From NCBI GenBank assembly GCA_016432445.1, contig CP066689.1, positions 510,001 to 542,000 of the forward strand: a stretch of DNA of 32,000 bases. Reading direction: 5' to 3'. The DNA is from Candidatus Saccharimonadota bacterium. GTDB taxonomy: Bacteria > Patescibacteriota > Microgenomatia > UBA1406 > GWC2-37-13. The notes under the pieces are model-generated. The model was not told the origin of the DNA and ran no database searches. It was given only the letters and a program-made list of their open reading frames with translations. The position numbers and the translations under genes are program-made. Within the stretch, counting starts at the first letter, position 1. Every line of letters begins with the position of its first letter. Shown here one piece after another: positions 274-28,772 of the stretch.

Positions 274-316
274 GAGTTGCCGACAATCTAATATTAAGTG
301 AAAGGAGGTGATGAAA

Positions 317-787
317 ATGGCGCACTTGGATATTCAAGAGGGCGATACACTGATCATCAAAGTGCGGCAAGAGGGCGATCAGCGTTTTGTATTCGAAGGG
401 ATACTGAGAAAGGAAAGAGCTTTTGGTTTTGGGCTGAGAACAGAGACTCAGCTTGAAGCAGGCTTGACACTCTTGGTAGTGATTGAACTGCTTGATGATC
501 CAGTAGGATCTGGTGATCATGAGTATGCAACAGTCACGAAAAGAAAGGCTTATGTGCCAAGCCGCCGCAAACCATGCTGGCTAGGCAGCCTGGTTATACC
601 GCTCTTCAAACGCACCTACCAAGTTCCGGCTCTGATCAAAATGTTCCGCATTCAGGAAGAACTCCTTACGGAAGAATTCCTTCGCCGTGTGGAAGAAAGT
701 GGAAGCGTGGACGAAGTAAAGTATCCGATGATATGGAATGTGTATTTTGAGCGGGCTAGTTCACGAGTGAAATCGGCAGAGGTATAG
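317..787 (+). CDS. hypothetical protein (about 156 aa) in GC-rich islet 1
   Basis: Track ORF 308..787. A strong SD AAAGGAGG lies at 301-308, and ATG 317 is 8 nt after GGAGG (GTG 308 and ATG 311 are too close). A hairpin plus T8 terminator follows. No motif recognised. Confidence 0.5.
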   Translation: MAHLDIQEGDTLIIKVRQEGDQRFVFEGILRKERAFGFGLRTETQLEAGLTLLVVIELLDDPVGSGDHEYATVTKRKAYVPSRRKPCWLGSLVIPLFKRTYQVPALIKMFRIQEELLTEEFLRRVEESGSVDEVKYPMIWNVYFERASSRVKSAEV

Positions 788-8614: not shown

Positions 8615-9085
8615 TTTATCTTGTAGATGATCGATTCCTCCGAATTCTTTTAAAACAATGGATTTAATCTTTGTTTTTAAATCAGGTCTGATGTGAGGAT
8701 AGGTCATCTCAGCTTCACCGCCAATGCTTTCACAGTCATCTTCGATAAGGATATCTGGCATTAATTTTTCAGCAACATCTTTATACTCTTCTCCTTTTTT
8801 TCTGAATAACAAATTCTGACAATCAGGAAAATTATACTTTTCAAGTACGTGCCTTATGTCATTTACTTCTTCTGGTGTGCTTCTTGAAGTTAGATAAAAT
8901 ATCTCCGCTCCTAGATTTTTCCATGAATGCAGTCTATTTGCAGGATTACCATTAGGAACGTAATTTTTATAGTCATAAACATCTTTTATTCCTTGTTGTG
9001 ATTGCTTAACTCTTTTCTCGCGAGAGATATCTTTAGCACATGAGGGCATAATAATAGTTCCTTCAGTAAAAATCAAAATTTTCAT
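8603..9085 (-). CDS. hypothetical protein, degenerate HAD-phosphatase-like
   Basis: 160 aa. The N-terminus MKILIFTEGTII resembles HAD motif I (hhhDxDGT), but both Asp are replaced (T, E). IEDD near the C-terminus resembles motif IV. The 3' end overlaps ftsK convergently by 12 nt. Confidence 0.4.
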   Translation of the reverse strand: MKILIFTEGTIIMPSCAKDISREKRVKQSQQGIKDVYDYKNYVPNGNPANRLHSWKNLGAEIFYLTSRSTPEEVNDIRHVLEKYNFPDCQNLLFRKKGEEYKDVAEKLMPDILIEDDCESIGGEAEMTYPHIRPDLKTKIKSIVLKEFGGIDHLQDKLDF

Positions 9086-9110: not shown

Positions 9111-10079
9111 TTAGTTTAAATATTTGGCGATATTGGCGTTGTGTTCTTCAAGAGTGCGGGCGTAGCGCATTTTTCCGTCCTTGCCGGTTATATAAAACAT
9201 ATAAGGAGTTGATGGATCAGCATTGGCAACTGCATTTAATGAAGAAAAACTAGGGTTAGATATTGGCTCCGGGGGTAGTCCAGTGTTTAAATAAGTATTG
9301 TAAGGAGATTTTATTTTTAAATCCTCAAGGGTAAGATTTTTTTTCCACCATGTTTTTTCTTTTGGCTGATAGCCTAAAGCATACTGTATAGTAGCATCAA
9401 CCTGTAAAGGTACTTCGTTTTGCAGTCTTTTTAGCAAAATGCTGGCAACTTTCTGCCTAGCCTCATCAGATCTGGCTTCTCTTTCCACAAGTGATGCTAG
9501 TGTTACTGCTTCAGGTTCTGTTAATTCTAAATTTTTAACTTTAGTTTTTAGTTCATTAGTAAAACGCTGTTTGAAAGTAAAGTTTAAAATATCAATTATA
9601 CCTCCTGCTGTTGCCTGCCGGGGAATAAGGTAAGTATCTGGGAAAAGATAACCTTCTTCTGACTGGCTAATAAATTCTACTTCAGGGATATCAAGGCTCT
9701 TTGAAAAAATCTGAGCTACTTCTTCTTTACGCAAGCCTTCAATAATAGTTACCCAGACATCAAGGGTTCCATGAGTTAAGGTTTCCGCTATCTCATCAGC
9801 ATTCATTGAAGGTGAGAGCCTAAAGTCTCCAGCTTGAATTTTTTTCTCGATTCCCTTTTGTTTAATAATGAAATAAAAAACAACACTGTTTCTGATTAGT
9901 CCCTCGCGGGAAAGATTTTTTACAATATTATTAAGGCTTTCTCCTGGTTTAATAACGAATATTTTTGTAGATTTCTCATTTTTATCAACTGCGAGAGTAC
10001 CTTCCTTGTAAAAAAAATATAAGAAAGTAATCGCTAAGATAATTAAAGTAAAAACAGCTATGAACTTAGTCGATCTCAT
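9111..10079 (-). CDS. mltG: endolytic murein transglycosylase MltG (YceG family)
   Basis: 322 aa. Single N-terminal TM. YceG-like motifs LASLVEREA and YNTYLNTGLPPEPISNPS. Confidence 0.9.
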   Translation of the reverse strand: MRSTKFIAVFTLIILAITFLYFFYKEGTLAVDKNEKSTKIFVIKPGESLNNIVKNLSREGLIRNSVVFYFIIKQKGIEKKIQAGDFRLSPSMNADEIAETLTHGTLDVWVTIIEGLRKEEVAQIFSKSLDIPEVEFISQSEEGYLFPDTYLIPRQATAGGIIDILNFTFKQRFTNELKTKVKNLELTEPEAVTLASLVEREARSDEARQKVASILLKRLQNEVPLQVDATIQYALGYQPKEKTWWKKNLTLEDLKIKSPYNTYLNTGLPPEPISNPSFSSLNAVANADPSTPYMFYITGKDGKMRYARTLEEHNANIAKYLN

Positions 10080-11331
10080 ATATGGGCATATTTTGTAATG
10101 TTACCTCAGCTTCTTTTATCCGATAGCGGTCCTGAGAATAAAATAAAAGCAAAGGTTCTTTTTTTTCGACTTTTTCGTCAACCTTTTTTAAAAGATAAAT
10201 TCCGGCATATTTATCTTCCGGTGCACCCAAAATTTTAGCTACTGAATTCAAATTGTAATTGTTAATTTCCTTAATTGTACCATTTTTTTTAGGAAGAACT
10301 TCTTTTTTATGGGCTTTAGTTTTAAAGTTATCAGACGTTACTTGGTCATCTCCGCCTTGAGCTTTGATGATTTCTTTAAATTTTTTCAAAGCAATTCTTT
10401 CACTTAAGATTCTTCGTGCTTCCTCTTCTCCACTTTTATTAATGTGAGCATCCTTAAAACAAATAGTTAGAAGTTTTCCAGCCAAGCGTAAGGCTTTAGC
10501 CTCTAGTTTCAATGGCCTGTCTTTTTTTTGTTCTAAAACTTCAAGAACATCTTTGGCTTCAAGATATGGGCCGACGCCGCGTCCGGCCGGTTCAAATGTT
10601 TCACTTATATCAGTTATAACTTCCATATCAAAATGTTTACCTATCATCCTAAATTTTTTAGCCACTTTTTCCGCATCCTCAAAATGTCTTATTTTCATAG
10701 TTTTTCCAACAGGAATATCAAGAATTAAATGATTAGTTGAAGCGGCTACTTTTTTGGCCATAATTGAAACAATGACTTTGTCGAAGGATTCAAAAGATAA
10801 AGGTTCTTCGATTTTAATAATTATGTCATCAGCTGGTGCTATTCCTAAGTGACCTCCCCAGACTATGCAGCCACCGATATCATTAACAATTGATTCTATT
10901 TTTCTTTCGCTGATCATAACATTGCCCAAAAGTTCCATCACGTCGGCCGTGCCGGCTGGCGTAGTAATGGCTCGTGATGAAGTTTTGGGTATCTTAAATC
11001 CGGCGGCAGCTATTATGGGGACAATAATCATTGTGGTTCGAGTGCCGGCTACTCCTCCTGTTGAGTGTTTATCAGCAACAATACCTTTAAAATTAAGCTT
11101 AGTCCCTGTTTCTACCATGGCTCGGGTTAGGTAAACTAACTCTTCAGTTGAGAAGCCTTCTTTAAATGAAGCGGCTACAAAATAAGTTGTTAAGATATCG
11201 CTTAGCCGTTTATGGGAGATTTCATTCATTAAGTTAAAAACTTCACGGTAGGTAAGTTTTTTCCCAAGTAGTTTGTTTTGAATAGCTTTGATAGCTTCAA
11301 GATGGTGTTTGGTGTTTACAGCAGGGTTCAT
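10066..11331 (-). CDS. thymidine/pyrimidine-nucleoside phosphorylase family protein (possible AMP phosphorylase type)
   Basis: 421 aa. Glycosyltransferase family 3 core with DKHSTGGVAGTRTT and a C-terminal PYNP-like domain. Substrate specificity cannot be assigned from sequence by eye. Overlaps murJ (ATGA, 4 nt) and mltG (14 nt). Confidence 0.8.
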   Translation of the reverse strand: MNPAVNTKHHLEAIKAIQNKLLGKKLTYREVFNLMNEISHKRLSDILTTYFVAASFKEGFSTEELVYLTRAMVETGTKLNFKGIVADKHSTGGVAGTRTTMIIVPIIAAAGFKIPKTSSRAITTPAGTADVMELLGNVMISERKIESIVNDIGGCIVWGGHLGIAPADDIIIKIEEPLSFESFDKVIVSIMAKKVAASTNHLILDIPVGKTMKIRHFEDAEKVAKKFRMIGKHFDMEVITDISETFEPAGRGVGPYLEAKDVLEVLEQKKDRPLKLEAKALRLAGKLLTICFKDAHINKSGEEEARRILSERIALKKFKEIIKAQGGDDQVTSDNFKTKAHKKEVLPKKNGTIKEINNYNLNSVAKILGAPEDKYAGIYLLKKVDEKVEKKEPLLLFYSQDRYRIKEAEVTLQNMPIYEID

Positions 11332-12956
11332 GATACTTGTGAGTAAATTTCTATAATCTTTTTTTGATACTCTTTTACCTTTACGATCATTTTGGATATG
11401 AGATAAAATTCTCTGATATTAAATATCCATGCAAAAAGTAAGTAGAGTAGGACATAAATTGTGCCTGTTACACAAATAAGAAAGAAAACATTGATAGTAC
11501 GGGTTGTGTCAAAGATGAGGTTATCAAAAAGTTTAAGGACATAATAAACAAAGGTTGATGATAAGATGGTGGCAAAACAAATTTTTAAAGTTTCAACAAT
11601 CAAAGTCTTAACCGCATATCCATTAAGTTTTATATAAAGAATAATCATAAGCAGTATGACATTAAGTATCATAGCAACAGAAAATGATATGGCTAAAGAC
11701 CATACAGGCAATTTTAATATTAATATGAATAATACGCTAAGAGTGATATTAACCAGGAGGGAAATAAAGCTTAGATAAAAAGGAGTTTTGCTGTCAAACA
11801 AAGCATAAAAGCATCTAGTTATAAAGTAATAAATAGCATGAAAAGGCAAAGCTAAAGAAAAATAAGAAAGAGTAACTGCAGTTAATACAGTGGCATCCCA
11901 GTCAAACTTCGGGCCTCCAAAAAAAAGTCTGATCACTGGAGTGCGGGCAAAAATGAAGAAAGAGGCGATAGGTATTGTAAAGAAAAATAAACTTAAAATA
12001 GAGTCAATAATAACTCTTTTTAAATCTTCAAACTTCTTCTGTTGATACATGTCTGAAAGATAAGGTAGAGATGCTTGGCCAAAAGCTATTCCCAGTACGG
12101 CAACAGGTAGAAGCTGAAGATGTTGAGCAAAATAAAAAACAGTATAAGAACCAGCACCAGCTAAACTAGCTAAAGTCAGATCGATGGTAACATCAATTTG
12201 AGCGATAATAATCGTAAATACTCTCGGTACAATCATTCTAAAAAAATCCCAAAGTTCTTGAGCTTTCTTAATAATAAGTTGATAATGAAACTGAGCAAGA
12301 GAGATGATTGGCAGCTGAACTAATAAAAACAGCAAAGCTCCAAAAATAACTCCGATAACTGGAGCTAGAAGATTTAAAGAAGAGGCAAAAATAAAAGTCA
12401 TAACAATAATCATGACATTGTAAAGAATTGGAGCGATAGCAGGAATAAGAAACATTCTTTTAGCCTGGCTTATTCCGGTTAAGAAATTGCCTAAAGCTAA
12501 AAAAGGCAGTTGACCGAAAAGCAGAATTTGAGAAAAAAAAGCAATTTGTTTAATTTTTTCTTTATCAAATCCAGGAGTGATAAAAGAGATTAAAGGATAG
12601 GAAAATATCGTAAGGACAATAATCAGTCCAAAAAGAAAAAGGGTAAGGATATTAATTATTGAGGAAATGTACTCATCCTGTAATTTTTTATTATTCTGAT
12701 ATTTAATATAAAAAGGAATAAAAGAGGCAGTTAAAGCTCCGCTTATAAGTATCTCAAAAATGAGATCTGGAAGTCTAAAGGCCGCAAAATATATATCCAG
12801 TTGTTCAGCAGTAAAATAGCCTGCCAGGACGCGGTAACGGATAAAACCAAAGATTCTGGCGACAACAATCATTGAAGCCAAGATAAGAGTTGATGAAAAC
12901 ATGCTTTTCTGCTGAGAGATGATAAGTTGTTTTGTCTGGCTAAATATTTTCTTCAT
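11328..12956 (-). CDS. murJ: lipid II flippase MurJ (MviN)
   Basis: 542 aa polytopic membrane protein. MurJ-like N-terminal region (RVLAGYFTAEQLDIYFAAFRLPDLIFEILISGALTASFIPFY). Confidence 0.88.
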   Translation of the reverse strand: MKKIFSQTKQLIISQQKSMFSSTLILASMIVVARIFGFIRYRVLAGYFTAEQLDIYFAAFRLPDLIFEILISGALTASFIPFYIKYQNNKKLQDEYISSIINILTLFLFGLIIVLTIFSYPLISFITPGFDKEKIKQIAFFSQILLFGQLPFLALGNFLTGISQAKRMFLIPAIAPILYNVMIIVMTFIFASSLNLLAPVIGVIFGALLFLLVQLPIISLAQFHYQLIIKKAQELWDFFRMIVPRVFTIIIAQIDVTIDLTLASLAGAGSYTVFYFAQHLQLLPVAVLGIAFGQASLPYLSDMYQQKKFEDLKRVIIDSILSLFFFTIPIASFFIFARTPVIRLFFGGPKFDWDATVLTAVTLSYFSLALPFHAIYYFITRCFYALFDSKTPFYLSFISLLVNITLSVLFILILKLPVWSLAISFSVAMILNVILLMIILYIKLNGYAVKTLIVETLKICFATILSSTFVYYVLKLFDNLIFDTTRTINVFFLICVTGTIYVLLYLLFAWIFNIREFYLISKMIVKVKEYQKKIIEIYSQVS

Positions 12957-13057: not shown

Positions 13058-13939
13058 TTAATCTATGATTTTAATATCACCATCAAATTTAAGTTTTTTT
13101 AATTTCTTCAACTCTAAAATTTGGTTTTTAGTTTGTTTAGATGAGACAATAAAAGATTCATTTTCCTTTCCAACTTCTTGAAGGTGGGGAAAGGTAGAAG
13201 CGAAATCATTAATATTTAAGTTATGTATGTCCAATTTCCTTCCGACTTTTCTTAAATTTGGGACTAATGCTAGGTTTGAATCATTAATATAACAACTAAA
13301 ATAAATTTCCTCAAGTGATGGAAAAGGATTCGTTTCATTCGATTGGATATATATATGTCCTGCTTTCTTAAGTTTGGGAGCTGATTTGATCCTCCCCCCA
13401 AAAAAACCTGCTACTTCTTCCAATGAATCAAAACAAACTGAATGTTTGGTAATTTCCAAATTACCGCCAACCTTTTTTAGTCTTTTAACAGAAGATATGT
13501 TTGTATTATGAGCCATTAAATTTCCATCTACTTCTTCCAAATAATCAAGAGACTTGAGAGAATTAAAAGGGAAACTGGTATTGCCGAATATTTTTTTTAT
13601 AATATTGGGAAAATAACTTGCATTTCCAGGTTGCTCATAATCCATTTTAAGGATAACTCTTTGGGAATCATCAAATAATAATGCTGGGGTAAAAGTATCA
13701 AGATCGTCTCCATGAGATTGATAGCGCCAAATTCTCAAAATCTCTATCACTTTTTTCTGAAAATCATCAGATAATTTTTGTTTACTGCCGGCAATATCTG
13801 AGCATCTATCATCAAGACGAGTTCTGACTTCATCTGTTGGGTTTCTTATGTATTCATCTATTGTTTCTGATAAAACCCTGAGTTTATCTTCCAAAGGCGC
13901 AAGCCGGTCTTTGAAGGTTTGGCAGTAAGTGGTTAACAT
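13058..13939 (-). CDS. solenoid-repeat paralog 1 ([FY]CQTF N-module + LEEV/LKKxG repeats + KLKF-G tail), unknown function
   Basis: 293 aa. MLTTYCQTFKDRL..., FDDSQRVIL, YFPNIIKKIFG. LEE-type units DYLEEVDG, DSLEEVAG, PSLEEIYF, PHLQEVGK alternate with RLKKVGGN, KLKKAGHI, NLRKVGRK. Tail KLKFDGDIKI. No signal peptide or TM. Confidence 0.8.
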   Translation of the reverse strand: MLTTYCQTFKDRLAPLEDKLRVLSETIDEYIRNPTDEVRTRLDDRCSDIAGSKQKLSDDFQKKVIEILRIWRYQSHGDDLDTFTPALLFDDSQRVILKMDYEQPGNASYFPNIIKKIFGNTSFPFNSLKSLDYLEEVDGNLMAHNTNISSVKRLKKVGGNLEITKHSVCFDSLEEVAGFFGGRIKSAPKLKKAGHIYIQSNETNPFPSLEEIYFSCYINDSNLALVPNLRKVGRKLDIHNLNINDFASTFPHLQEVGKENESFIVSSKQTKNQILELKKLKKLKFDGDIKIID

Positions 13940-13942
13940 ATA

Positions 13943-15016
13943 TTATTCAACTTTTATTTTCCCATTGAAGCTCAATCTTCCGTTTTCTCTTAAAGCTTCA
14001 ATTTGTTTTTTAATGTAATTTCTAGGTACATGAAAAGATTCATCTTCATTATCATTATTTCTTGTAGAACCAACAGCTGATAGATTAGGAAAAGCACTAT
14101 GGAAGTCAGTTATCTTAGTTTTATCAATAATCATTCTTCCTCCGATTCTTCTTAAGCTTGGTAGAGATATTGCCGGATTGCTCGACTTGATTGTAAAACT
14201 ATCTGTGACTTCTTCCAATAAAGGTAAAGGATCAGTATTATGTGTCTTAATATCGATGCTTCCGGCCTTTTTGAGTTTTGGTGAAGAATCGCAGTGTGCA
14301 TAAAATTCTTCTCCGACTTCTTCAAGTAATGGAAATTGTGTTAATGTATCTACCACAGAAGTGAGATGTGAACCCACTCTTTTCAAGCGAGGTAATGATG
14401 TAATCTTTTTACTATAGTCGATGTTTAAATAACCTTGAACTTCTTCTAAATAATCCATCTGTGTAAGTGATTCTGCGAATATGAGTGCGTTACCGCCAAT
14501 TTTTTTTAATCTGCCAATTGATTGTAATAAAGGAGCGATATTTATACGAAAATCTCCTTCGATTTCTTCTAAATAATCTAAATTTGTTATATGTGATCCA
14601 TATAAGTCTAAATCTCCAATAATTTTTCTTATCAAACCCGGAAAATAGCTAAGAAAAGAGTTTTTGTTACCACGGTAGAAAGGGTTAATAGCAGGGACTG
14701 GCTGATCTTGGGAACTGTAATTAATGTTTCCTTTAATAACAACTCTTTGATTATCCTCAAAATCTATACTTCTCAAGAACTCTTCTCTTTGCTTTTTATC
14801 AGTATAGGGATACCAATGCATGAGCATCTCTTTTACCTGTTGCTGGTACTCTCCAACAAAATCTTGGTGAAGAGCCTTTAATTCATTAAATCTTTTTTCT
14901 AATTCTTGAGAAGGATTTGACATATACGCAAGTACTAAATTATCAATTTCCCTTAATTGCTCAGGCAAAGGTTTAAATCTTTCTTGAAATGTTTGACAGA
15001 AAGTAATAGGGGACAT
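13943..15016 (-). CDS. solenoid-repeat paralog 2 (same family, one extra repeat pair)
   Basis: 357 aa. MSPITFCQTFQERF..., HWYPYTD, FEDNQRVVI, YFPGLIRKIIG. Five LEE-type units (DYLEEIEG, DYLEEVQG, PLLEEVGE, PLLEEVTD, PNLSAVGS) and four L[KR][KR]xG units. Tail RLSFNGKIKV. 3-nt gaps to both neighbours. Confidence 0.8.
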   Translation of the reverse strand: MSPITFCQTFQERFKPLPEQLREIDNLVLAYMSNPSQELEKRFNELKALHQDFVGEYQQQVKEMLMHWYPYTDKKQREEFLRSIDFEDNQRVVIKGNINYSSQDQPVPAINPFYRGNKNSFLSYFPGLIRKIIGDLDLYGSHITNLDYLEEIEGDFRINIAPLLQSIGRLKKIGGNALIFAESLTQMDYLEEVQGYLNIDYSKKITSLPRLKRVGSHLTSVVDTLTQFPLLEEVGEEFYAHCDSSPKLKKAGSIDIKTHNTDPLPLLEEVTDSFTIKSSNPAISLPSLRRIGGRMIIDKTKITDFHSAFPNLSAVGSTRNNDNEDESFHVPRNYIKKQIEALRENGRLSFNGKIKVE

Positions 15017-15019
15017 ATT

Positions 15020-16933
15020 TTATTTAATCAAAATATCTGCCAGCAGTTTTTCTAATGTCGGTAGAAGATCTTCTATTCTTCTTAACTTTTGTCCTTTTTC
15101 GCCCCATTCAAATTGAAAAGGGTCATCATGAAGAGAGTTTTCAACAGGTTTATCTACCATTTTTTCTTTTATTTCATCAGGCAGGTTTATTATTGAGTAG
15201 TCGGGCGGAATCTGGATTGCGCGGCAAATTACTCCCTTTTCCTCAAGCAGTTTTATAGCCCCTTTGCCGTCTTCTGGTTTTTCTGTTGCACCATCTGTAA
15301 TTTCAATGAGAATCCGCAGTGTATCTTTAGGATCGCTGGCAGGAAGTTTACTAAGCTCGTCGAGAACCTGCTTAAAAGCAGAGTAGTCGTATGTCCCGTC
15401 TAAACATTGGTGTGAGTTTATCGTTGTGTCAAGAAGATTATCTTCTGACTGTTGCGGGTTATCGCTTATTCTTCGATTATAAGAAGTAAAGGCACGAGTG
15501 CCGTAAGGGACAATCATAAGACTTACCCGTACAGGAAAAACAGTATTATTTATTTGTCCTTCTTTAGTAAAGAGGATAAGCGATTGTCCTATGGCATATT
15601 CAGCATCTTCCTCAAGATTAATGATTTTTTGTCCACTTTGAAACGTACTTCCTGAGTAATCTACTGGAAGCATAATGACTATTTCCTTCGGATGAATTTC
15701 TTCTCCTGAAGGCACCATAAGATCTTTTTCAAAAATAGCGGCGCTGGCTGGATTAGAGAGAAGATTAGCTAACTGTCCGGGAATACTGGAAAAATTAACT
15801 CTTGTTCCTGAAGTGAAGCCGGGAATAGCCTGAAGAGATTCTTGGAATGATTTTTGAATTAGACGCCACCAAAGATCTTTAAGGTTATTTATTACCTGTG
15901 CAGTTCTTTCTTTTCTTTCCCACATGGTTTGGATTTCTTCATCACTATGCCCGCAGTTTTTCATCCTTTCTTCGAAATCTTTTCTTTGGTTTTCTTTGGC
16001 ATTTTGGCTTGATGAGCGGTTTTTTTTATCTAAATATTTATCAACCTCTTTAAAATTATCCGCATCTGTCGGATCAAAATCTTCATCAATGTCGCCGTCC
16101 TCCTCTTCGTTATCCTCACCTTCAGCGTTTTTAGGCTTTTGAGAACGGTTATTATCAATATCATCCTGCAGAAGTTTTTCAAATACCGGCATAACAACAT
16201 TCTTTAAAGAAAAAATAGCTGACGCTAAAGATGGAGCTTGCTGAACTTCTGCTCTTATAAAATCTTCCATTGAGTCATAGTGAGTTCCCAGGAAATCTAT
16301 AGGTTGAGCAAGAACTTGGGCTACTTGGGGGCTGACATTAATTTGAGCATCAGGCACCATAAGTTTTTTTATTGTATAGTCTAAAAGCTGAGAGTGATGA
16401 GGTCTTTGCGAATAATCAGCTCCCGGGAAAAGTTTTTTATCGTAAAGTTCGGTTGGTGTTTCTTGCCACTTTTCGCCCGGCTGGAAAGCCTGCATTCTTT
16501 TTACAATCCGGTTATTGTCATTAAGATCGAGGTAAATATTGAAAAACTTTTTCCAGGCTCTTTTATGCGCCGGGTTGTCGCCTGCTTTAGCTTTAATTAT
16601 TTCAAAGACCTGTTTATAAGTTATTGGATCTTCAAGGTATTGAAGGAAGTGGCCTATTTCATGACCTAAGACAAAAACTCTTTCAGGAGTAGTGAGCTGA
16701 AGTTTTTCTGATAACTGCGAGCCAAAGTGAGCTGTAGGAGTGTCTTCGTGTGTAAAGAAAGCTTTTTTTCCGGGATAAACACGGATTTTTATGCCGGTGC
16801 CTGCCATAACCTCACTGGCCCACTGTAAAGATTCGACGTGCTTGCGAATTTCCGGATCAACAGGTTTATCTGGAGGCGGTTTTCCTCCTAAGGCGGCAAG
16901 ATATTGGGGATGTTGTAAATCTTCATAAGACAT
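15020..16933 (-). CDS. HExxH metallopeptidase-motif + von Willebrand A (MIDAS) domain protein
   Basis: 637 aa. VFVLGHEIGHFLQY (HEIGH = nt 16649-16663). Acidic linker KPKNAEGEDNEEEDGDIDEDFDPTDAD. C-terminal VWA-like region with IVIMLPVDYSGST (DxSxS = nt 15647-15661), and later LDGT and ILIEITDG. No signal peptide. Confidence 0.8.
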   Translation of the reverse strand: MSYEDLQHPQYLAALGGKPPPDKPVDPEIRKHVESLQWASEVMAGTGIKIRVYPGKKAFFTHEDTPTAHFGSQLSEKLQLTTPERVFVLGHEIGHFLQYLEDPITYKQVFEIIKAKAGDNPAHKRAWKKFFNIYLDLNDNNRIVKRMQAFQPGEKWQETPTELYDKKLFPGADYSQRPHHSQLLDYTIKKLMVPDAQINVSPQVAQVLAQPIDFLGTHYDSMEDFIRAEVQQAPSLASAIFSLKNVVMPVFEKLLQDDIDNNRSQKPKNAEGEDNEEEDGDIDEDFDPTDADNFKEVDKYLDKKNRSSSQNAKENQRKDFEERMKNCGHSDEEIQTMWERKERTAQVINNLKDLWWRLIQKSFQESLQAIPGFTSGTRVNFSSIPGQLANLLSNPASAAIFEKDLMVPSGEEIHPKEIVIMLPVDYSGSTFQSGQKIINLEEDAEYAIGQSLILFTKEGQINNTVFPVRVSLMIVPYGTRAFTSYNRRISDNPQQSEDNLLDTTINSHQCLDGTYDYSAFKQVLDELSKLPASDPKDTLRILIEITDGATEKPEDGKGAIKLLEEKGVICRAIQIPPDYSIINLPDEIKEKMVDKPVENSLHDDPFQFEWGEKGQKLRRIEDLLPTLEKLLADILIK

Positions 16934-16942
16934 AAATATTTG

Positions 16943-19069
16943 TTAGGCCGCGGCTCCCATAATAGCAGCTTCATCTTTACAGAAGAGTTGAAGCGCGCCT
17001 TTATCTCCTGTTTCTTTATCAAACTTATTAAACTCACGTAAAAAAGTGGCAATTTCGTCTCTTTTATGCTGCATTTCGCTTATTTTTGCCATAACTAGCT
17101 CGCGGCTTGGTGCGTTAGTTTTTCCTTCAACAGTAGTAACTGTTATGGTTTCCGGCATTTTATAGCCTGCAAAGGCTTCAGCCACTTCTTGGGCTGTGAA
17201 AAGCTTCAATCGCTGATCAGCTATGGAGACGTCATTTTTATTGATTGCGCCGTTAAGTTTTAGATTTTTTGAGGCCTGTTCTATCTCTAATTTTCCTTCC
17301 CAATAATTGCCTTCAAAAAAACCATAACTATTTTTCATGATGCTAAAAAAATATGCAGCTTCGCGGGGAGCTATAACGCTTGTTGGTCTAATTAGATGTT
17401 CGTAGAGATGGTAGTCTAATGGATATCTGAAGCCTTCAGCTTTCCAGCTTTTTAAAATATCCACAAGAGTACGCATCGAGGCATGTGATTGCTGAAGTCT
17501 TAACTCTGTGCCGTCAGAAAATTTATCAGAATCCCGGAGCGGTTTTCCGGCAAAATTATTTTGGAAAACCTTAAAAGCTTGAGTCATCTTCCATACCTTT
17601 TCTAAAGAGTCCTCTGGTGCGTAAAGATTACCTTTTTGATCAACCAGTATAGCCATACTTATTTGAAAAAGCTCTCTTTTTTTAGGTTTTTCTCCATTTT
17701 TTCTTTTTACGCTGTCGATAACACAGTTATTTAAGGTAAGATCAATCTCATCCTGAGGGGGAGTGTTGTACTCAAAAAGACCGGAATTAAGCCTGTTTAT
17801 GAAAGCCGGATCAAGAGCCGATCTTTCAAGGTATCTCTGGGCATTAGAAAGACTTAAGTTTCCGGTAAATATAATGCCAAACCCCTTCTTTACCTCAATT
17901 TTATTGCCGGCCGGAGTGATTATAAACGATCCGGGTCTAGTCTGCATAACCTCATTTATAGAGGCAAGAAGAGCTGGATTAATATAATTAAACTCATCAA
18001 TAATAACTATTTTTCCTTCTTCGGCCGCTTTCATAACTTGTCCCAAAAATTCTTTAGGGCTAAACTGAGGCGTACTGCTTTGATTTAAGACTATCTGATC
18101 AATAGTTTTCAATCTTTCCTCAAGTTCGGTGGCTTCCATATCTCCTTGAACCATTTGTAGGTATCTTGCTTTAGCTTCTTCAGAGAGTCTTAGTGCTTGC
18201 TCAGGCGCTACGACTTTAGTTTCTAACCCAAGAAAAGAGAGAAGATCTTCTCGGGTGGTAAATTTATGTCCGGTTACAAAATAATAAGGAGAGCCTTTTT
18301 CGCCTAGGTGAAACTTTTTGTAGCTTTCGGTAGCAATTCTTTTTGAAACCTGGGTTTTCCCAGTGCCGGTCTCGCCGACCAAAGCAACCATTCCTTTTTG
18401 CATCAGTTTTAGAGTGATTTCTTCTTCAAGGTTAGCCAGTGTTTCTGTAGTGACGATATTGGTGGTGTTAAGCTGGTGTTTAAAATCTCTTAACTGCAGT
18501 AAGTTGTGGGCAAGGAAAGACTCAGGATCAATAAAAGGCAGCTGATCTTTATAAACTCCTCTAAGATTCTTTATCATTTCTTCATAATTATTTTTCTGAT
18601 CGATTGTAGCGGCATTAACCCGGTTGGTATCTAGAGCTGCCGATTCTTTTAAGGAGCGCAGTTCACTCTGCATAGCGTTAATAACATTCTTTATGTTAGT
18701 TGCGTTGACAATATATCCTCTTAGTCTACCGGTACTTTCCTGAATTAGTATATTTTGTTCCTCATCTGTGCCCAATTTTCCCGCTTCTACCCTTAATGTT
18801 TCTCTTTCTTTAGCTAATCTTTCAATACCTCCTGATGTTTGAATCTCTTCAGCGCCGACAGCTACTTGTTCTAAGGTTGCTTTTTCAGGTGGAATATAAC
18901 GGTTATAAAGATTCCAGGCTTTAGAAAGAGTATCATTTGGGGATGGATGACTTTGCTTAGCGTCTCTTACTTCTGGTTGAGAAATATCATATCGATCATG
19001 ACTTCGCAGTTTTTGCATAACAGCATAAAGCTCGTTGTTTTGTATAGGAACTTCGACTAGATTTGGCAT
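16943..19069 (-). CDS. AAA+ ATPase, MoxR / dynein-midasin-related (AAA_5-like) type, with long N- and C-terminal extensions
   Basis: 708 aa. Walker A MVALVGETGTGKT (nt 18353-18376). Walker B KIVIIDEFN (VIIDEF = nt 17990-18007). FGIIFTGN (sensor 1 Asn), ALDPAFINRL, and a lid-like SMRTLVDIL. About 220-aa coiled-coil-like N-terminal region. About 115 aa lie between Walker A and Walker B. Confidence 0.85.
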   Translation of the reverse strand: MPNLVEVPIQNNELYAVMQKLRSHDRYDISQPEVRDAKQSHPSPNDTLSKAWNLYNRYIPPEKATLEQVAVGAEEIQTSGGIERLAKERETLRVEAGKLGTDEEQNILIQESTGRLRGYIVNATNIKNVINAMQSELRSLKESAALDTNRVNAATIDQKNNYEEMIKNLRGVYKDQLPFIDPESFLAHNLLQLRDFKHQLNTTNIVTTETLANLEEEITLKLMQKGMVALVGETGTGKTQVSKRIATESYKKFHLGEKGSPYYFVTGHKFTTREDLLSFLGLETKVVAPEQALRLSEEAKARYLQMVQGDMEATELEERLKTIDQIVLNQSSTPQFSPKEFLGQVMKAAEEGKIVIIDEFNYINPALLASINEVMQTRPGSFIITPAGNKIEVKKGFGIIFTGNLSLSNAQRYLERSALDPAFINRLNSGLFEYNTPPQDEIDLTLNNCVIDSVKRKNGEKPKKRELFQISMAILVDQKGNLYAPEDSLEKVWKMTQAFKVFQNNFAGKPLRDSDKFSDGTELRLQQSHASMRTLVDILKSWKAEGFRYPLDYHLYEHLIRPTSVIAPREAAYFFSIMKNSYGFFEGNYWEGKLEIEQASKNLKLNGAINKNDVSIADQRLKLFTAQEVAEAFAGYKMPETITVTTVEGKTNAPSRELVMAKISEMQHKRDEIATFLREFNKFDKETGDKGALQLFCKDEAAIMGAAA

Positions 19070-19075
19070 ATTTTT

Positions 19076-19104
19076 AATCTATAATATATCCATTACTATT
19101 TCAA
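19076..19104 (-). promoter_or_regulatory. candidate internal promoter for the AAA+ gene, leaderless geometry
   Basis: The minus strand reads TTGAAA (19104-19099), 17-nt spacer, TAGATT (19081-19076), then 6 nt to ATG (19069). It sits in the only sizeable (61-nt) gap of the operon. Confidence 0.4.
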
Positions 19105-19130
19105 GAGATTATTTTTATAAAATATTGTTC

Positions 19131-20096
19131 TTAATTACTTACAACTGCGAGTTCTCCTGTAAATTTAAGTTTACCTGCGTTTTGCAATTTTAATACTTGC
19201 TCTTTAACTTCTTCAGAAGACACTGATACTGATTCATCCTGTGAAGAACCATTACCTCTACCTATTTCTTCCAACTGAGGAAATGTTTCTTCAAAATCTA
19301 TATATGCAAGTTTATTAATGAATAAAGCACCTTTAATTTTTCTTAATTTTGCCGCCGATTTAAAAATTGATGATTGTCGAAAAGTATGTGAAATTCCAAT
19401 AACTAAATCTCCATGGACTTCTTCCAGAGCAGGTAAAAAGCGAATGTTTGTACCAGATAAATCAAAATTACCTGTTTTTTTTAATCCGTTAAGTGATTTT
19501 AATACTGGAGATTCTACAAACGTATAACCTCCGGTTTCTTCCAAAGAATCTAAATGTTTGAGACCAATATTATGTATGTGTAATGATCCTGTTTTTTTTA
19601 ATCTTGCCATTGATTTTAAGTAAGGTAGATTATTTAAAGTTAAGCTATCGACTTCTTCTAAATAATCTACAAATTCAGTAGAAAGATTTTGTAGTGTTAA
19701 TATACCGGCTACTTTTCTGATTAAGTTAGGAAGAAATATTTTCTCATAGGTGCGATGTCCGTGTGGATCGCCATAAATTGCTTTTCCTAAATGTAAGTTG
19801 TTGTTTACCACCACTCTTTGATTATCTTCAAAACCTATGTTTTGCATAAAATTCTTCTTTTGCTCTTCATCAGTATACGGATACCACTGCATAAGTAAAT
19901 CTCTTGCATGTTGTTGGTATTCTTTAATTAAAGCTTGTTTTTCTCCATCAATCTTTGACATTAGATCGGTTAGTTTTTGATCATTTTCTGGATATGGGTT
20001 TGAGATGTAAGATTTTAATTCTTCTTCTAAAGCAGGGAATTGATCGGCAAGTGGTTTGAGTCTCTCTCGAAAGGTTTGGCAAAAGGTTTGCGGCAT
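19131..20096 (-). CDS. solenoid-repeat paralog 3
   Basis: 321 aa. MPQTFCQTFRERL..., QWYPYTDEEQ, FEDNQRVVV, FLPNLIRKVAG. Units DYLEEVDS, DSLEETGG, PALEEVHG, PQLEEIGR alternate with RLKKTGSL, GLKKTGNF, KLRKIKGA. Tail KLKFTGELAV. Confidence 0.8.
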   Translation of the reverse strand: MPQTFCQTFRERLKPLADQFPALEEELKSYISNPYPENDQKLTDLMSKIDGEKQALIKEYQQHARDLLMQWYPYTDEEQKKNFMQNIGFEDNQRVVVNNNLHLGKAIYGDPHGHRTYEKIFLPNLIRKVAGILTLQNLSTEFVDYLEEVDSLTLNNLPYLKSMARLKKTGSLHIHNIGLKHLDSLEETGGYTFVESPVLKSLNGLKKTGNFDLSGTNIRFLPALEEVHGDLVIGISHTFRQSSIFKSAAKLRKIKGALFINKLAYIDFEETFPQLEEIGRGNGSSQDESVSVSSEEVKEQVLKLQNAGKLKFTGELAVVSN

Positions 20097-20105
20097 AAAA
20101 AAATA

Positions 20106-21038
20106 TTACCATTTTCCACTCTCATAATCTATATCACCATTGAATTTTAATTCACCTTTTTTTTCTAGATCTTTAATTTGTTTCCTAATATCTTCATTTG
20201 GTACAAAAAATGCTGTATTTATACGAAGTCCTATAGGAGCGCTGGTGGGTCTAACTTCTTCCAATACAGGAAAAACTGCTCTAAAATCGTCAATTTTTAA
20301 ATCTGATATATCAAGTGTGCCGCCTACTTTTCTGAGTTTTTTCATTGATACTAAACTGTTATTTAAAGAACAGTCCGCTACAACTTCCTCAAGTAAATCG
20401 AGCCTTTCAATACAAGTTCCGCTAAAATCAGCGTCTCCTCTCACTTTTTTTAATTTAGGTAATGATTTTAAGCTCTGAACATTATTTAAATCAAGACCGC
20501 CGGCTTCTTCTAAGCTTTCCAGCGATTCAATATTTGTGTTAGCGAAATTTGCATTACCGCCAATTCTTCTTAATCTTTTCATAGATCTTAAGCTGGAAGA
20601 ATTATTTACAAGAAGACTACCGTCAACTTCTTCAAGATAATCAATAAATGTCATTGCTTCGTTGTTACACCGTAAATCGCCAGTAATCTTTCTTATAAGA
20701 GACGGGATGTAGAAAATTTGAGCAAGAGGTCCGCCAGAATTTATAGCACAATCAATAATAACTCTTTGTGAGTTTTCAAAGCGGACAGATGATAAAAAAT
20801 CAGATATGTTTACGTGTGCACCATGAGGGTACCATTTTTTAAGCATTAGTATCACCTGTGATTGATATTTCTCAACAAATTTTTGTTTACTTGCATAAAT
20901 CTTAGCGATTAATTCTTCAGTTTGTACCAGCCCGGAAGGGTCTGACAATAATCGTGATACTTCAGCATCAGTAGTAGAGAATAAGCTCGAAAGAGACAAG
21001 ATTTCCTTTTGAAAAGTTTGGCAGTAGGCGGTGGTCAT
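20106..21038 (-). CDS. solenoid-repeat paralog 4
   Basis: Track ORF 20106..21062 begins at a TTG. ATG 21038 gives MTTAYCQTFQKE..., aligning with the other three N-termini. KWYPHG, FENSQRVII, YIPSLIRKITG. Units DYLEEVDG, ESLEEAGG, DLLEEVVA, PVLEEVRP alternate with RLRRIGGN, KLKKVRGD, KLRKVGGT. Tail ELKFNGDIDY. Confidence 0.8.
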   Translation of the reverse strand: MTTAYCQTFQKEILSLSSLFSTTDAEVSRLLSDPSGLVQTEELIAKIYASKQKFVEKYQSQVILMLKKWYPHGAHVNISDFLSSVRFENSQRVIIDCAINSGGPLAQIFYIPSLIRKITGDLRCNNEAMTFIDYLEEVDGSLLVNNSSSLRSMKRLRRIGGNANFANTNIESLESLEEAGGLDLNNVQSLKSLPKLKKVRGDADFSGTCIERLDLLEEVVADCSLNNSLVSMKKLRKVGGTLDISDLKIDDFRAVFPVLEEVRPTSAPIGLRINTAFFVPNEDIRKQIKDLEKKGELKFNGDIDYESGKW

Positions 21039-21114: not shown

Positions 21115-21143
21115 TTGACATCTGATGGGAAATGGCGTTAAAT
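21115..21143 (+). promoter_or_regulatory. candidate dcw (mraZ) promoter, leaderless geometry
   Basis: Consensus TTGACA (21115-21120), 17-nt spacer, TTAAAT (21138-21143), then 8 nt to ATG 21152. ATGG motifs recur at 21132, 21142 and 21152 (10-nt phase). Confidence 0.5.
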
Positions 21144-21151
21144 GGTTATAT

Positions 21152-21547
21152 ATGGTTTTTTTTGGTGAATATGAAGTCTCATTTACGGCTCCGGGAAGAA
21201 TTATATTACCAAAAAAACTTAGAGAACTATTAAAAGGAAACGTTTTGGTTTTATCAAAAGGATTTGATTCATGCTTATCAGGTTATGACAAAGAAGATTG
21301 GGAAACGAGGGCTAAAAGTTTGCTTGGAGTATCACTTTTGGAAAAAGAGAATTTGGATAAAAAAAGATTTCTTTTTGCCTCAGCTGTGTACCTTGAAATA
21401 GATGATCAGGGAAGATTTGTGATCCCGCGGAATCTTTTGCTATATGCCAATCTGGAAGGAAAGGCTTGCATTATTGGAGCAGGAGATCATTTTGAGGTTT
21501 GGGATGTAAAAAAATGGCAAATATATCTTAAGGATGTTAAATCTTAA
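21152..21547 (+). CDS. mraZ: transcriptional regulator MraZ
   Basis: MVFFGEYEVSFTAPGRIILPKKLRE plus a second half, DDQGRFVIPRNL, giving two SpoVT/AbrB-like repeats. ATG 21152 gives the canonical MF.GEY N-terminus. First gene of the dcw cluster. Confidence 0.9.
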   Translation: MVFFGEYEVSFTAPGRIILPKKLRELLKGNVLVLSKGFDSCLSGYDKEDWETRAKSLLGVSLLEKENLDKKRFLFASAVYLEIDDQGRFVIPRNLLLYANLEGKACIIGAGDHFEVWDVKKWQIYLKDVKS

Positions 21548-26532: not shown

Positions 26533-27291
26533 ATGAAAGAAAGAGCTGAAATTGGAATTGGTCTTTTGAACACTGAAAGAAAGCGGATGAGCGCATTCCT
26601 TAGAAAATTTATTCCCCATGTAAAACCTAATAAATTAGTAGCCTGTGGTGGTCTTGCAACACGTTATCATCTGCAAACTCATGGTATCACGTTTCCTCAA
26701 AGACCTTTTAATGACCTTGATTTATTGATAAAAGCTGCAGATGATATTTTGCCTTCCATAACCTCGGATTTTATGCTTTATCACTATCATCCCGCGGGTG
26801 TTGATGATCCGATAGAAAAAACATATTTTTTTTACGCTTTCATTGATCCGGAAACAAAAATTAAAGCAGATGTTTTTCCCTATCGTTGGTCTTCACCAAA
26901 GCGTTTTATTCAAGCTACTTTTAAAGGAAAACTACTTCCCATTGTTGGCGCAGAAGACCAGCTTATCCAATGTCTTTATGATGTCTCAAGAATATCAGAG
27001 ACTATGAAAGTTGACCCTAAACAGTTACAAGATGTTCATTCTCTTTTACAAATTACCGATACTAGTCTCGCTGAACAAATATGGCGAAGCAACAGTCATC
27101 CTTTATATCCTAAAACTCTTCACGAGGCGCTTTTAAGGGCGGACTCAATAGTAAAAGAACATCCTGATTGGTGGAAAGAAAAGCCTTATAGAAAACCAAA
27201 GCCATATCAATGTCAAAATTGTCAAGCCCGACCTGTATTCGCGATTACAGATATGACTAAAATATATGAAATCTTAGGATACGTTGAATAA
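26533..27291 (+). CDS. hypothetical protein, possibly a minimal nucleotidyltransferase fold
   Basis: 252 aa. ACGGLA...(about 20 aa)...NDLDLLI...IKADVF loosely fits the pol-beta NTase pattern (G[GS], DxD, downstream acidic residue). C-terminal CQNCQ. Sits between pgeF and murC. The family assignment is unverified. Confidence 0.3.
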   Translation: MKERAEIGIGLLNTERKRMSAFLRKFIPHVKPNKLVACGGLATRYHLQTHGITFPQRPFNDLDLLIKAADDILPSITSDFMLYHYHPAGVDDPIEKTYFFYAFIDPETKIKADVFPYRWSSPKRFIQATFKGKLLPIVGAEDQLIQCLYDVSRISETMKVDPKQLQDVHSLLQITDTSLAEQIWRSNSHPLYPKTLHEALLRADSIVKEHPDWWKEKPYRKPKPYQCQNCQARPVFAITDMTKIYEILGYVE

Positions 27292-27344: not shown

Positions 27345-28772
27345 ATGGTTGAAGAGGTAAAGAATGTGTTTATTTTGGGGATAAAAGGTGTGGCTATGGC
27401 CAACCTTGCTGTGATCCTCAAAAAAATGGGTAAGAATGTAACTGGTTCAGATGTAGACGAAGAATTTATAACTGATGAACTTCTTAATAAGAATAGTATT
27501 GGCTGGTCTATTGGCTTTGATCCTCAAAATATTCCTCAAGAGACTGATTTGCTGGTCTATTCAGCTGCCCACAATGGTAAAAATAATCCTCAAGTCCAAT
27601 ACGCTTTAGAAAAAGGAATAAAAGTTTTAAATCAGGCTGATTTGCTATCTGAAATAATGAATCTACATGAAAATAAAATTGCTGTTTGCGGCAGTCATGG
27701 AAAAACTACAACGACAGCTCTTATTGCTTTTTGTTTAAAGAAACTGGGAGTTAATCCAACATATATGGTTGGCACTTCCTATTTCAGCGGACAGGAAGGT
27801 GGAAATCTTGGCGATAAAAAATATTGCGTTATTGAAGCTGATGAGTATGGCGTTGATCCTCCAAACGATAAAACTCCAAAATTTCAAAAACTTGAACCAA
27901 ATTATATTGTGTCAACTAATATCGATTTCGATCATCCGGACATTTTCAGTAGTATTGAAGAAACGAAATCAGCATTTTATCTTTTTTTCCAAAAATTAGT
28001 TAATATCGATGAACGTAGATTATTTTTGTGCGCTGATGATCAGAAATTAATGGGAGTTGCTTCTCAATTGCAAATGATTACTTATAAAACTTTTGGTTTT
28101 AGTGAAAAAGCTGATTTCGTTATTAAAAATATTCAAACTGATGAAACTCATTGTCAGTTTGAGCTTTATGAAGGCGATAAAAAAGTGGACGAGTTTACTT
28201 TATTAATTTTTGGTGAAAAAAATATTTCTAATGCCGCCGGAGCCATTGTTCTTTTGCTTAATCTTGGATTTTCAAGCGAAGCTATAAAAAACGTAATAAG
28301 TCTTTTTACGGGAGCTAAAAGAAGATTTGAACAAACAGCTTTTGTAAACAATATTTATTTGTTTGATGATTATGCTCATCATCCGCAAGAAATAGAGGCA
28401 ACATTGAACGCGGCCAGATTGAGGTTTAATAACCGCCGTATTATTCTTGTTTTCCAGCCTCATACCTACTCAAGGACAGAATCTTTGAAGGAAGAATTTG
28501 TAAAATCATTAGCAAAAGCTGATTTATCATTAATAGCACCGATTTTTGCATCCGCTCGGGAGACACTCGGATTAAATTTAATCAGTTCTTCAAAACTTGC
28601 AGAGATGGCTTCTCAAAGGGGCGTTTCTACGATTTTCTCCTACTCGACTAAGGCAGAGTTAATTGATCGTTTAAAGTCAGATTTACGGCCGGGAGATGTT
28701 ATTTTTACTATGGGCGCAGGCGACATTTATAAGGTAAAAAATGATATAATTAGTCTTATTAGAACAGTCTAA
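27345..28772 (+). CDS. murC: UDP-N-acetylmuramate--L-alanine ligase
   Basis: 475 aa. N-terminal Rossmann GIKGVAMANLA, P-loop GSHGKTTTTA, DDYAHHPQEI. Full-length Mur ligase organisation typical of MurC. Confidence 0.9.
   Translation: MVEEVKNVFILGIKGVAMANLAVILKKMGKNVTGSDVDEEFITDELLNKNSIGWSIGFDPQNIPQETDLLVYSAAHNGKNNPQVQYALEKGIKVLNQADLLSEIMNLHENKIAVCGSHGKTTTTALIAFCLKKLGVNPTYMVGTSYFSGQEGGNLGDKKYCVIEADEYGVDPPNDKTPKFQKLEPNYIVSTNIDFDHPDIFSSIEETKSAFYLFFQKLVNIDERRLFLCADDQKLMGVASQLQMITYKTFGFSEKADFVIKNIQTDETHCQFELYEGDKKVDEFTLLIFGEKNISNAAGAIVLLLNLGFSSEAIKNVISLFTGAKRRFEQTAFVNNIYLFDDYAHHPQEIEATLNAARLRFNNRRIILVFQPHTYSRTESLKEEFVKSLAKADLSLIAPIFASARETLGLNLISSSKLAEMASQRGVSTIFSYSTKAELIDRLKSDLRPGDVIFTMGAGDIYKVKNDIISLIRTV

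Follow-up and report, generated by a model that had tools for sequence, protein, structure and literature searches.

A previously unannotated family of Cys-hairpin, L-domain-like solenoid proteins as the multi-copy partner of a MoxR-clade ATPase and an HExxH-vWA protein in a conserved gene trio

Here we describe a block of six genes in a 32,000-nt stretch of contig CP066689.1 (assembly GCA_016432445.1, positions 510,001 to 542,000; hereafter the window) from a bacterium of the candidate phyla radiation (CPR). Four paralogous genes of a previously unannotated family, which we call A to D, surround a gene for an AAA_5 ATPase of the MoxR/dynein-related clade and a gene for a protein that combines an HExxH motif with a vWA domain bearing a metal ion-dependent adhesion site (MIDAS). 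Sequence comparison with other loci indicates that the family, with its multiple copies, completes a conserved trio with these two proteins, and we tentatively propose that its members serve as exchangeable recognition subunits.

Results

The trio recurs in metagenomic loci with one to many solenoid paralogs

The block spans positions 13058-21038 of the window in the order A-B-ATPase-HExxH-vWA protein-C-D, with all six genes on the minus strand and intergenic gaps of 9, 61, 9, 3 and 3 nt. Paralog A, the first gene, lies at 20106-21038 (310 aa from an ATG at 21038) and is followed by paralog B at 19131-20096 (321 aa), the ATPase at 16943-19069 (708 aa), the HExxH-vWA protein at 15020-16933 (637 aa), paralog C at 13943-15016 (357 aa, with one repeat pair more than A, B and D) and finally paralog D at 13058-13939 (293 aa). 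The original prediction had assigned four paralogs to 19131-21038, a span that covers A and B only, and had implicitly treated them as a stand-alone family; they are instead the variable third component of a set in which the ATPase and HExxH-vWA genes stand between them. No terminator-like site was found on the minus strand within the block, and a promoter scan gave a result at chance level and was uninformative.

Two loci found from family members, L003 and L007, carry ATPase and vWA homologs beside paralog arrays, the L003 ATPase being 36% identical over 683 aa (E 1e-134) and its vWA protein matching at E 8e-79. L003 and L008 belong to a single 91.5-kb contig (SRR12689834_101616 / JGI 3300037504) in which a very long tandem series of at least 29 paralogs comes after the ATPase and vWA genes, a count taken over two sampled stretches of 21 kb each, which lie about 8 kb apart and have some 30 kb of contig beyond them. 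Many paralogs of this array have extra repeats and reach up to 636 aa. At L007, three paralogs are followed by the ATPase and then the vWA gene; the ATPase gene here (L007:7368-9404) is broken into two open reading frames (ORFs; 439 and 176-194 aa), which may reflect a frameshift or a pseudogene; the paralogs and the vWA gene beside it are both intact.

Scanning metagenomes with the ATPase as the anchor gave 21 loci. Wherever sequence was available after an intact ATPase or vWA gene (13 of 13 loci), family genes directly adjoined, and the partners are present in 13 of the 14 loci with room for them, the exception, L031, having fragments of the ATPase gene only. L031 (Ga0078972_1001890) contains two short ATPase-like ORF fragments (29% identity) with no vWA or family gene within 21 kb, and may be a decayed copy. 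The genes occur in three orders (paralogs-ATPase-vWA-paralogs, ATPase-vWA-paralogs and ATPase-paralogs-vWA-paralogs) and the arrays range from one to at least 29 paralogs per locus. No fourth conserved component was found in the loci, whose flanks consist of unrelated housekeeping genes that vary from one locus to the next (MFS, RecG, amidohydrolase, tRNA synthetases), and a search of known plasmids and phages with the ATPase gave no match. The records carry unverified metagenome-assembled genome labels that include Candidatus Roizmanbacteria (the window), uncultured Gammaproteobacteria and Vitreimonas sp.

Two neighbouring genes considered as partners were rejected on comparison, namely a 627-aa neighbour at L001 as a vWA homolog and a large ORF at L010 (called as 1256 aa and compared over the 804 aa from its first ATG) as an ATPase or vWA homolog. 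L001, labelled Gammaproteobacteria, and L007 come from different samples and have in common the order tRNA-synt_1b, tRNA-synt_1b, family paralogs; at L001, two tiny ORFs after the paralog resemble fragments of further family members (MTATLLPPRCRWYQ... and ...IEIMGDIAVIP).

The motifs of the ATPase and the HExxH-vWA protein are intact

The window ATPase matches Pfam AAA_5 at E 5.6e-12 (46.3 bits against a cut-off of 22), with a Walker A motif GETGTGKT at 18353-18376 and a Walker B motif IIDEF at 17990-18004, both on the minus strand. Across 18 ATPase homologs the GETGxGKT, hhDE and TGN motifs (Walker A, Walker B and sensor) are near-invariant, and JGI names close homologs 'MoxR-like ATPase'; the MoxR-clade placement is based on the AAA_5 score, these motifs and the JGI names. 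The protein also matches PHROG 249, 'porphyrin biosynthesis' (CobS-like), at E 2.6e-10.

Its partner has an HExxH domain at the N-terminus (HEIGH at 16649-16663) and, beyond a strongly acidic linker, a vWA domain at the C-terminus whose MIDAS motifs are DYSGS (15647-15661), T514 and TDG (15290-15298), again on the minus strand. In ten homologs at 26-38% identity, H91, E92, H95, D425, S427, S429, T514 and T546-D547-G548 are invariant, as is D136 downstream of the HExxH, and position 138 is mostly His. Pfam gives no vWA match for the protein of the window, whose L007 homolog reaches 29.4 bits with VWA_2 against a cut-off of 27. Matches to known structures and peptidase families are weak: a profile of the vWA protein against the PDB gave integrin I domains and complement C2 vWA at E of about 0.02-0.08, the HExxH region gave the minigluzincin proabylysin at E 0.47, and Pfam gave Peptidase_M48 at E 0.04 and integrin. 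Taken at the level of residues, the catalytic and metal-binding motifs of both proteins are intact.

The family joins an N-terminal hairpin to a predicted L-domain-like solenoid

Paralogs A to D align end to end at 36-39% identity and carry all of the motifs on which the original prediction was built: [FY]CQTF at residues 5-9 (CQTF of paralog A at 21012-21023), an NP/DP turn, W[YR][PY], F[ED][DN][NS]QRV[VI], [YF].P.[LI]I[KR]K[IV].G, DYLEE[VI] followed by RL[KR][KR].G, and a tail G.L.F.G.I. In paralog B, the N-terminal module (N-module) comprises residues 1-86 (19839-20096), with Cys6 at 20079-20081, DYLEEV at 19650-19667 and the tail GKLKFTGELAVVSN at 19134-19175. A hidden Markov model (HMM) of the family matches paralogs A, C and D at E 4e-100, 4e-121 and 3e-90, respectively, and an HMM of the N-module matches A at E 1e-21 and D at E 4e-22.

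Acidic repeat units of the LEE type alternate with basic ones of the L[KR][KR] type as proposed, at a spacing of 17-21 aa (mode 20) and not the 22 aa or so first estimated. Two solenoid types had been suggested for them, of which the receptor-L-domain or leucine-rich repeat (LRR)-like one stands. Pfam Recep_L_domain (PF01030; gathering cut-off 21.8 bits) matches all four paralogs, A (E 5.6e-7, 30.1 bits) and C (E 5e-9, 36.7 bits) above the cut-off and B (19.6 bits) and D (18.6 bits) just below it, and a family homolog at L010 scores 58.4 bits. The BspA-type LRR_5 (PF13306), by contrast, matched none of the four window paralogs at E<=1, and one family homolog reached E 0.0086 with 16.4 bits, under the cut-off of 27.7. 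In keeping with the view that the family was unrecognised, neither the first 85 residues nor the protein as a whole is covered by any model of Pfam, NCBIfam, PADLOC or PHROGs, and all members that we saw are unnamed or 'hypothetical'.

An AlphaFold2 model of paralog B (m6aad9e24f91e), built from a five-sequence alignment with a predicted local distance difference test (pLDDT) score of 83.2 and a predicted TM-score (pTM) of 0.78, places antiparallel helices at residues 2-32 and 36-71 and a short helix at 77-85 ahead of beta-solenoid strands at about 87-292, a helix at 295-306 and a strand at 316-318. The solenoid anticipated from the repeats thus appears in the model, behind a helical hairpin. 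Paralog A is laid out as an N-terminal Cys hairpin, an L-domain-like solenoid and a capping tail. Foldseek searches of the PDB and BFVD with the paralog B model returned nothing at E<=1e-3; the top matches, which are not significant, were the LRR domains of SspH1/IpaH (E 0.13, probability 0.85) and LRR/FNIP proteins of giant viruses, and the N-terminal hairpin resembled generic coiled-coil hairpins only.

A word-indexed search yielded a single outside relative (P0004, 27% identity), and a narrow family pattern run against GTDB genomes matched the contig of P0004 alone. By themselves these results would have pointed to an orphan family, a picture that an exhaustive profile search corrected: of 1.84 billion representative proteins, 4690 match at E<=1e-3, and 122 of these reach E<=1e-30. 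The family is thus well beyond what chance would give and extends far outside this genome. Roughly 55 of the best 150 matches, proteins of 240-490 aa, have the N-module at their extreme N-terminus; the remainder of these 150 are repeat-only, and some are giant. P0021, P0048, P0082, P0154 and others are giants of 3000-6500 aa that match in the repeat part only, in up to 20 stretches of LEE/LKK flavour. P0009 (422 aa) is a cytoplasmic-looking protein with LEEV.G/LKK alternation, rungs rich in tryptophan and, at its C-terminus, a long helical stretch that is charged; it lacks the Cys hairpin. When 45 full-length members are aligned, the invariant columns are Cys6, Arg94 and Pro123 only, with D144, L146, E147, E148 and a few scaffold residues near-invariant. 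We conclude that this is a real, unannotated family in which a modelled hairpin beginning at a near-invariant Cys leads into an L-domain/LRR-like solenoid of variable length, which a short helix and strand cap.

The original view of a cytoplasmic family is also supported, as all six proteins of the block lack a transmembrane-like stretch and the paralogs, with a maximum Kyte-Doolittle 19-residue mean of 1.29 or less, have polar N-termini and no signal peptide. The Cys does not belong to a lipoprotein signal peptide with an L-[AS]-[GA]-C lipobox; polar residues (mostly H, A, P or S) precede it, with no h-region. Searches for the type VII substrate families WXG100 and LXG gave no match at E<=1, and the turn of the hairpin is NP/DP.

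Conserved cysteines mark the two termini that appear to meet

The N-terminal Cys is found in about 64 of 67 intact family N-termini, 2-23 residues from the Met, and Cys6 of paralog B is the only Cys of that protein. A second conserved Cys lies in the C-terminal tail of the ATPase, where 13 of 18 homologs have it within the last dozen residues in the motif [LF][FY]C.DE..I; in the window this is Cys697 of QLFCKDE (16970-16990, minus strand). The ATPases of one subclade, L013, L015 and L016, lack the tail Cys. At L013 and L015, the family members likewise lack the N-terminal Cys, and IpaH/YopM-style LxxLPxLP LRRs replace the L-domain repeats; L016 has no family gene visible at the locus.

At L015 the two proteins are joined, in that a 1167-aa ORF as assembled (L015:5510-9013, plus strand) runs through the AAA_5 core, a Cys-less family N-module (N-module HMM E 2.6e-6) and ten LRR_4 repeats (E 5e-54). 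The same two parts are separate genes at L013 (L013:422-2927), split by a TAG and 6 nt. Together, the fusion and the joint loss of both Cys residues suggest that the C-terminus of the ATPase meets, and may directly contact, the N-terminus of the family proteins. We also considered whether the ATPase tail is itself a relative of the N-module and rejected this, as scores stayed below threshold in all but the L015 fusion.

Hypervariable positions fall on alternate residues of the solenoid strands

The original prediction held that the paralogs share a conserved N-module and that the diverged remainder behaves as diversifying recognition modules. The first part survives for a few anchors, above all the N-terminal Cys, which had not been singled out, nor had its counterpart in the ATPase tail; otherwise the N-module of the window paralogs is as diverged as the solenoid (identity 0.33 and 0.39, respectively). 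We have therefore dropped an argument from a conserved dock and a variable body. Because every region of these old paralogs is equally diverged, their comparison is uninformative either way.

A young group of 13 paralogs from one lineage (54-78% identity, by region compared) is more telling for the second part. Their repeats are near-identical 20-residue units, NAQTINLPNLEKIGGxFxAxN, with an almost invariant scaffold and hypervariable offsets at +2, +4 and +6 after the GG, that is, at alternate residues of the beta-strand of each rung. The ratio of nonsynonymous to synonymous substitution rates (dN/dS) in these 13 paralogs is 1.44 at the hypervariable offsets and 0.56 elsewhere when cross-validated, with offsets picked on repeats 1-2 and scored on the remaining repeats; a value of 2.78 obtained from circular selection of columns is inflated and we disregard it. 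Hypervariability at alternate beta-strand positions in this group fits the view of diversifying recognition modules.

Genomic setting of the block in the window

The block lies between murJ (11328-12956, minus strand) on one side and the divergent mraZ (21125-21547, plus strand) of the dcw cluster on the other, with envelope genes nearby that include MltG/YceG. The FtsK encoded in the window has alpha and gamma domains and is of the canonical division type, and tRNA and Rfam scans of the window gave no matches. Several other features of the window are recorded here for completeness. Two ORFs have no Pfam match, one of 252 aa within the mur/dcw cluster (26533-27291, plus strand) and one of 160 aa (8603-9085, minus strand); just after the former, a 475-aa ORF (27345-28772) looks like MurC by reading. 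The gene at 10066-11331 (minus strand) is thymidine-phosphorylase-like, with partial Pfam matches (Glycos_transf_3 over 80 residues together with the N- and C-terminal domains), and its product may be an AMP-phosphorylase-type enzyme of the kind reported in CPR and archaea. The first 1000 nt of the window have a G+C content of 0.47, against about 0.35 for the remainder, and contain overlapping opposite-strand ORFs at 218-520 (minus) and 308-787 (plus) with no tRNA or Rfam family.

Discussion

Four types of MoxR-vWA ternary conflict system have been described, in which the third component is VMAP, iSTAND, a double FtsH or a vWA-fused beta-propeller; they carry variable suites of C-terminal effectors on the vWA protein and occur mainly in bacteria that are multicellular (Kaur, Burroughs, Iyer & Aravind, eLife 2020, PMC7159879). 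The trio resembles them in its core of a MoxR-clade AAA+ protein and a vWA-MIDAS protein, in its diversifying third component and in the logic proposed for both, of sensing, ATP-driven remodelling and deployment of an effector, and a metallopeptidase is occasionally found on the vWA component of the published systems as well. It differs from them in that its third component is a Cys hairpin with an L-domain solenoid in one to at least 29 tandem copies, in that the extra domain of its vWA protein is N-terminal and always an HExxH domain (invariant across homologs), with the vWA domain at the C-terminus, and in that the genome carrying it here is that of a CPR bacterium and measures about 1.1 Mb. 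EAD/Death-like adaptors, caspase, trypsin, TIR and cyclase domains, VMAP, iSTAND, FtsH and beta-propellers are absent from the trio loci. The trio belongs to none of the four published types, because its third component differs and its vWA protein lacks C-terminal effector suites, and we regard it as a MoxR-vWA-centred system built on a previously unannotated family.

Its parts invite comparison with other well-known proteins. Like the receptor L domain (PF01030), BspA/LRR_5 and FNIP repeats, the solenoid is made of units of about 20 aa (L..L..[IV].G.L.I) that form a right-handed beta-solenoid, yet known L-domain proteins (EGFR, the insulin receptor, fungal Ecm33/Sps2 and Leptospira LIC11966) are extracellular, whereas the family has no signal peptide and adds an N-terminal hairpin, a C-terminal cap and alternating acidic LEE and basic LKK rungs. 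The weak fold similarity to the LRR domains of IpaH/SspH comes without a NEL E3-ligase domain. An NTPase combined with an LRR-type sensor whose strands vary strongly at certain positions, and the NTPase-then-LRR order of the L015 fusion, recall nucleotide-binding LRR receptors (NLRs) and STAND proteins, as a functional analogy only; unlike those, the ATPase is of the AAA_5/MoxR and not the STAND class, the sensors are numerous and usually separate, and a putative vWA-zincin takes the place of the N-terminal effector. By analogy only, a small N-terminal helical dock joined to an LRR-type binder in large, diversified families is reminiscent of the F-box/LRR receptors of SCF, and an AAA+ motor combined with an HExxH peptidase is reminiscent of FtsH (AAA+ plus HExxH M41), but there is no F-box or M41 similarity and the peptidase motif of the trio sits on the vWA protein, not the ATPase. 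CobS/CobT, BchI/BchD and Midasin (Rea1) likewise pair an AAA_5 motor with a MIDAS vWA by way of an acidic linker, and the MIDAS domain of Midasin grips a conserved acidic residue of its client. The trio has no CobT, CobN or chelatase signatures, unlike these proteins, and no porphyrin or ribosome-biogenesis context.

The account that we favour, and hold tentatively, is that the paralogs are interchangeable recognition subunits docked on an engine of ATPase and vWA-zincin, with a likely role in conflict (defence or offence) or targeted proteolysis. A solenoid protein would capture a target, its N-terminal Cys hairpin would dock on the Cys-bearing C-terminal tail of the ATPase, where the paired Cys residues may form a common metal site or a disulfide, and the vWA-MIDAS protein would associate with the ring of the ATPase in the manner of other MoxR-vWA pairs. 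Hydrolysis of ATP would then remodel the captured target or pass it to the putative zincin domain for cleavage. In its logic this scheme is like an NLR divided into one motor and many alternative LRR sensors, or like F-box/LRR receptors that supply a protease with substrates. We suggest a role in conflict or targeted proteolysis because the arrays are expanded and diversifying and their taxonomic spread is patchy. Four rival explanations, taken up below, seem to us to rank beneath this one, tentative as it is.

The strongest of the four, still an unlikely one in our judgement, reverses the roles, so that the paralogs are clients or cargo and the MoxR-like ATPase and vWA protein form an assembly chaperone that mounts them, for example on an attachment structure of an episymbiotic CPR cell, with the zincin domain processing them. 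MoxR-vWA pairs have been described generally as a chaperone and co-chaperone that remodel a partner protein (PMC7159879), L-domain and BspA repeats are typically extracellular, the repeat-only matches include fungal Ecm33-like GPI proteins and giants of up to 6498 aa, and the window locus sits among envelope genes (MurJ, MltG/YceG and the dcw cluster). However, the family has neither signal peptide nor transmembrane segment, the L015 fusion of ATPase and family protein suggests stable association and not transient handling, and the hypervariable strand positions point to ligand recognition and not to structure. Nor is the envelope context conserved, because the flanking housekeeping genes differ among loci.

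MoxR/AAA_5-vWA pairs also operate in chelatases and in the maturation of metalloenzymes (CobS/CobT, BchI/BchD, NorQ/NorD and CoxD/CoxE), and the trio could accordingly be imagined as a system for metal trafficking or cofactor insertion in which the paired Cys residues hand over a metal ion. An AAA_5 ATPase with a partner of some 640 aa, whose acidic linker leads to a C-terminal vWA, recalls the architecture of CobT and BchD, the ATPase has its match to PHROG 249, and a single near-invariant Cys stands at each of the two termini that appear to meet. We nonetheless consider such a system improbable: no CobT, CobS_N, CobN or chelatase model was matched in Pfam or NCBIfam, no conserved metalloenzyme target lies nearby, arrays of at least 29 diversifying paralogs make no sense for one cofactor pathway, and one subclade works without either Cys.

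Equally improbable, to our minds, is that the paralogs are translocated, host-directed effectors like IpaH, SspH and YopM, with the N-terminus as an export signal and the ATPase as an export chaperone. CPR bacteria are host-associated, the top structural matches are to SspH1/IpaH LRR domains, and the Cys-less subclade has IpaH/YopM-style repeats. Against this, none of the structural matches is significant, no locus contains a NEL or other effector domain or a secretion-system gene, the proteins end right after the solenoid cap, and the family is also present in records labelled as free-living lineages of Proteobacteria; to our knowledge, moreover, known signals of type III or type IV secretion systems do not resemble a hairpin of two helices that takes up about 85 aa at the N-terminus. 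That the paralogs are stand-alone cytoplasmic binders whose adjacency to the ATPase and vWA genes is coincidental, as the original prediction implied, could appeal to arrays with no visible ATPase on the contigs of L005, L006 and L010, but these contigs are just 3.4-6.9 kb and the trio is complete in 13 of 13 ATPase-anchored loci with room, as well as in the window, L003 and L007, so that we give coincidence hardly any credence.

Several points weigh against the recognition-subunit account itself. Just one assembled contig shows the L015 fusion, which could stem from a mistake in assembly or sequencing where the stop codon lies, and the covariation of the two Cys residues amounts to one evolutionary event because it is confined to a single subclade. 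One would expect a shared dock to have diverged less than the solenoid, and among the old paralogs, anchors aside, the N-module has not. The dN/dS contrast comes from one lineage with phases defined post hoc, though cross-validated. No mobile or defence genes flank the block in the window, and PADLOC defence models give nothing but a weak match to the ATPase core. Lastly, the assignment of a zincin fold draws on the HExxH motif and two weak matches, because the single-sequence model of the vWA protein has a pLDDT of 35.

A bolder version of the recognition-subunit account is a previously undescribed 'split NLR' machine for immunity or proteolysis, in which one AAA_5 ring would hold mixed LRR-like sensors on its tails through a Cys-Cys clasp, with the vWA-MIDAS/zincin protein as executioner. 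With 4 to more than 29 sensors encoded in a genome, a hexameric motor could display combinations of them. We consider this version doubtful as it stands.

A full-text search of the literature gave no description of this combination in a library that is limited, so that a prior description is possible. At a minimum, our analysis defines an unannotated family and assigns a genomic partner to two proteins that have been annotated as 'AAA ATPase' and as nothing, respectively, and it offers a concrete, testable contact between the tail Cys of the ATPase and the N-terminal Cys of the sensor. If the proposed function holds, the trio would be a fifth MoxR-vWA ternary type, architecturally apart from the other four, in which the variable part is an expandable array of separate LRR-like sensors serving one motor and one protease-like subunit in place of an effector suite. 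Bacteria would then employ a logic of many receptors and one engine like that of NLR and F-box proteins, even in a CPR organism whose genome measures about 1.1 Mb, and a split NLR, if real, would give even ultra-small CPR cells a germline-encoded recognition repertoire.

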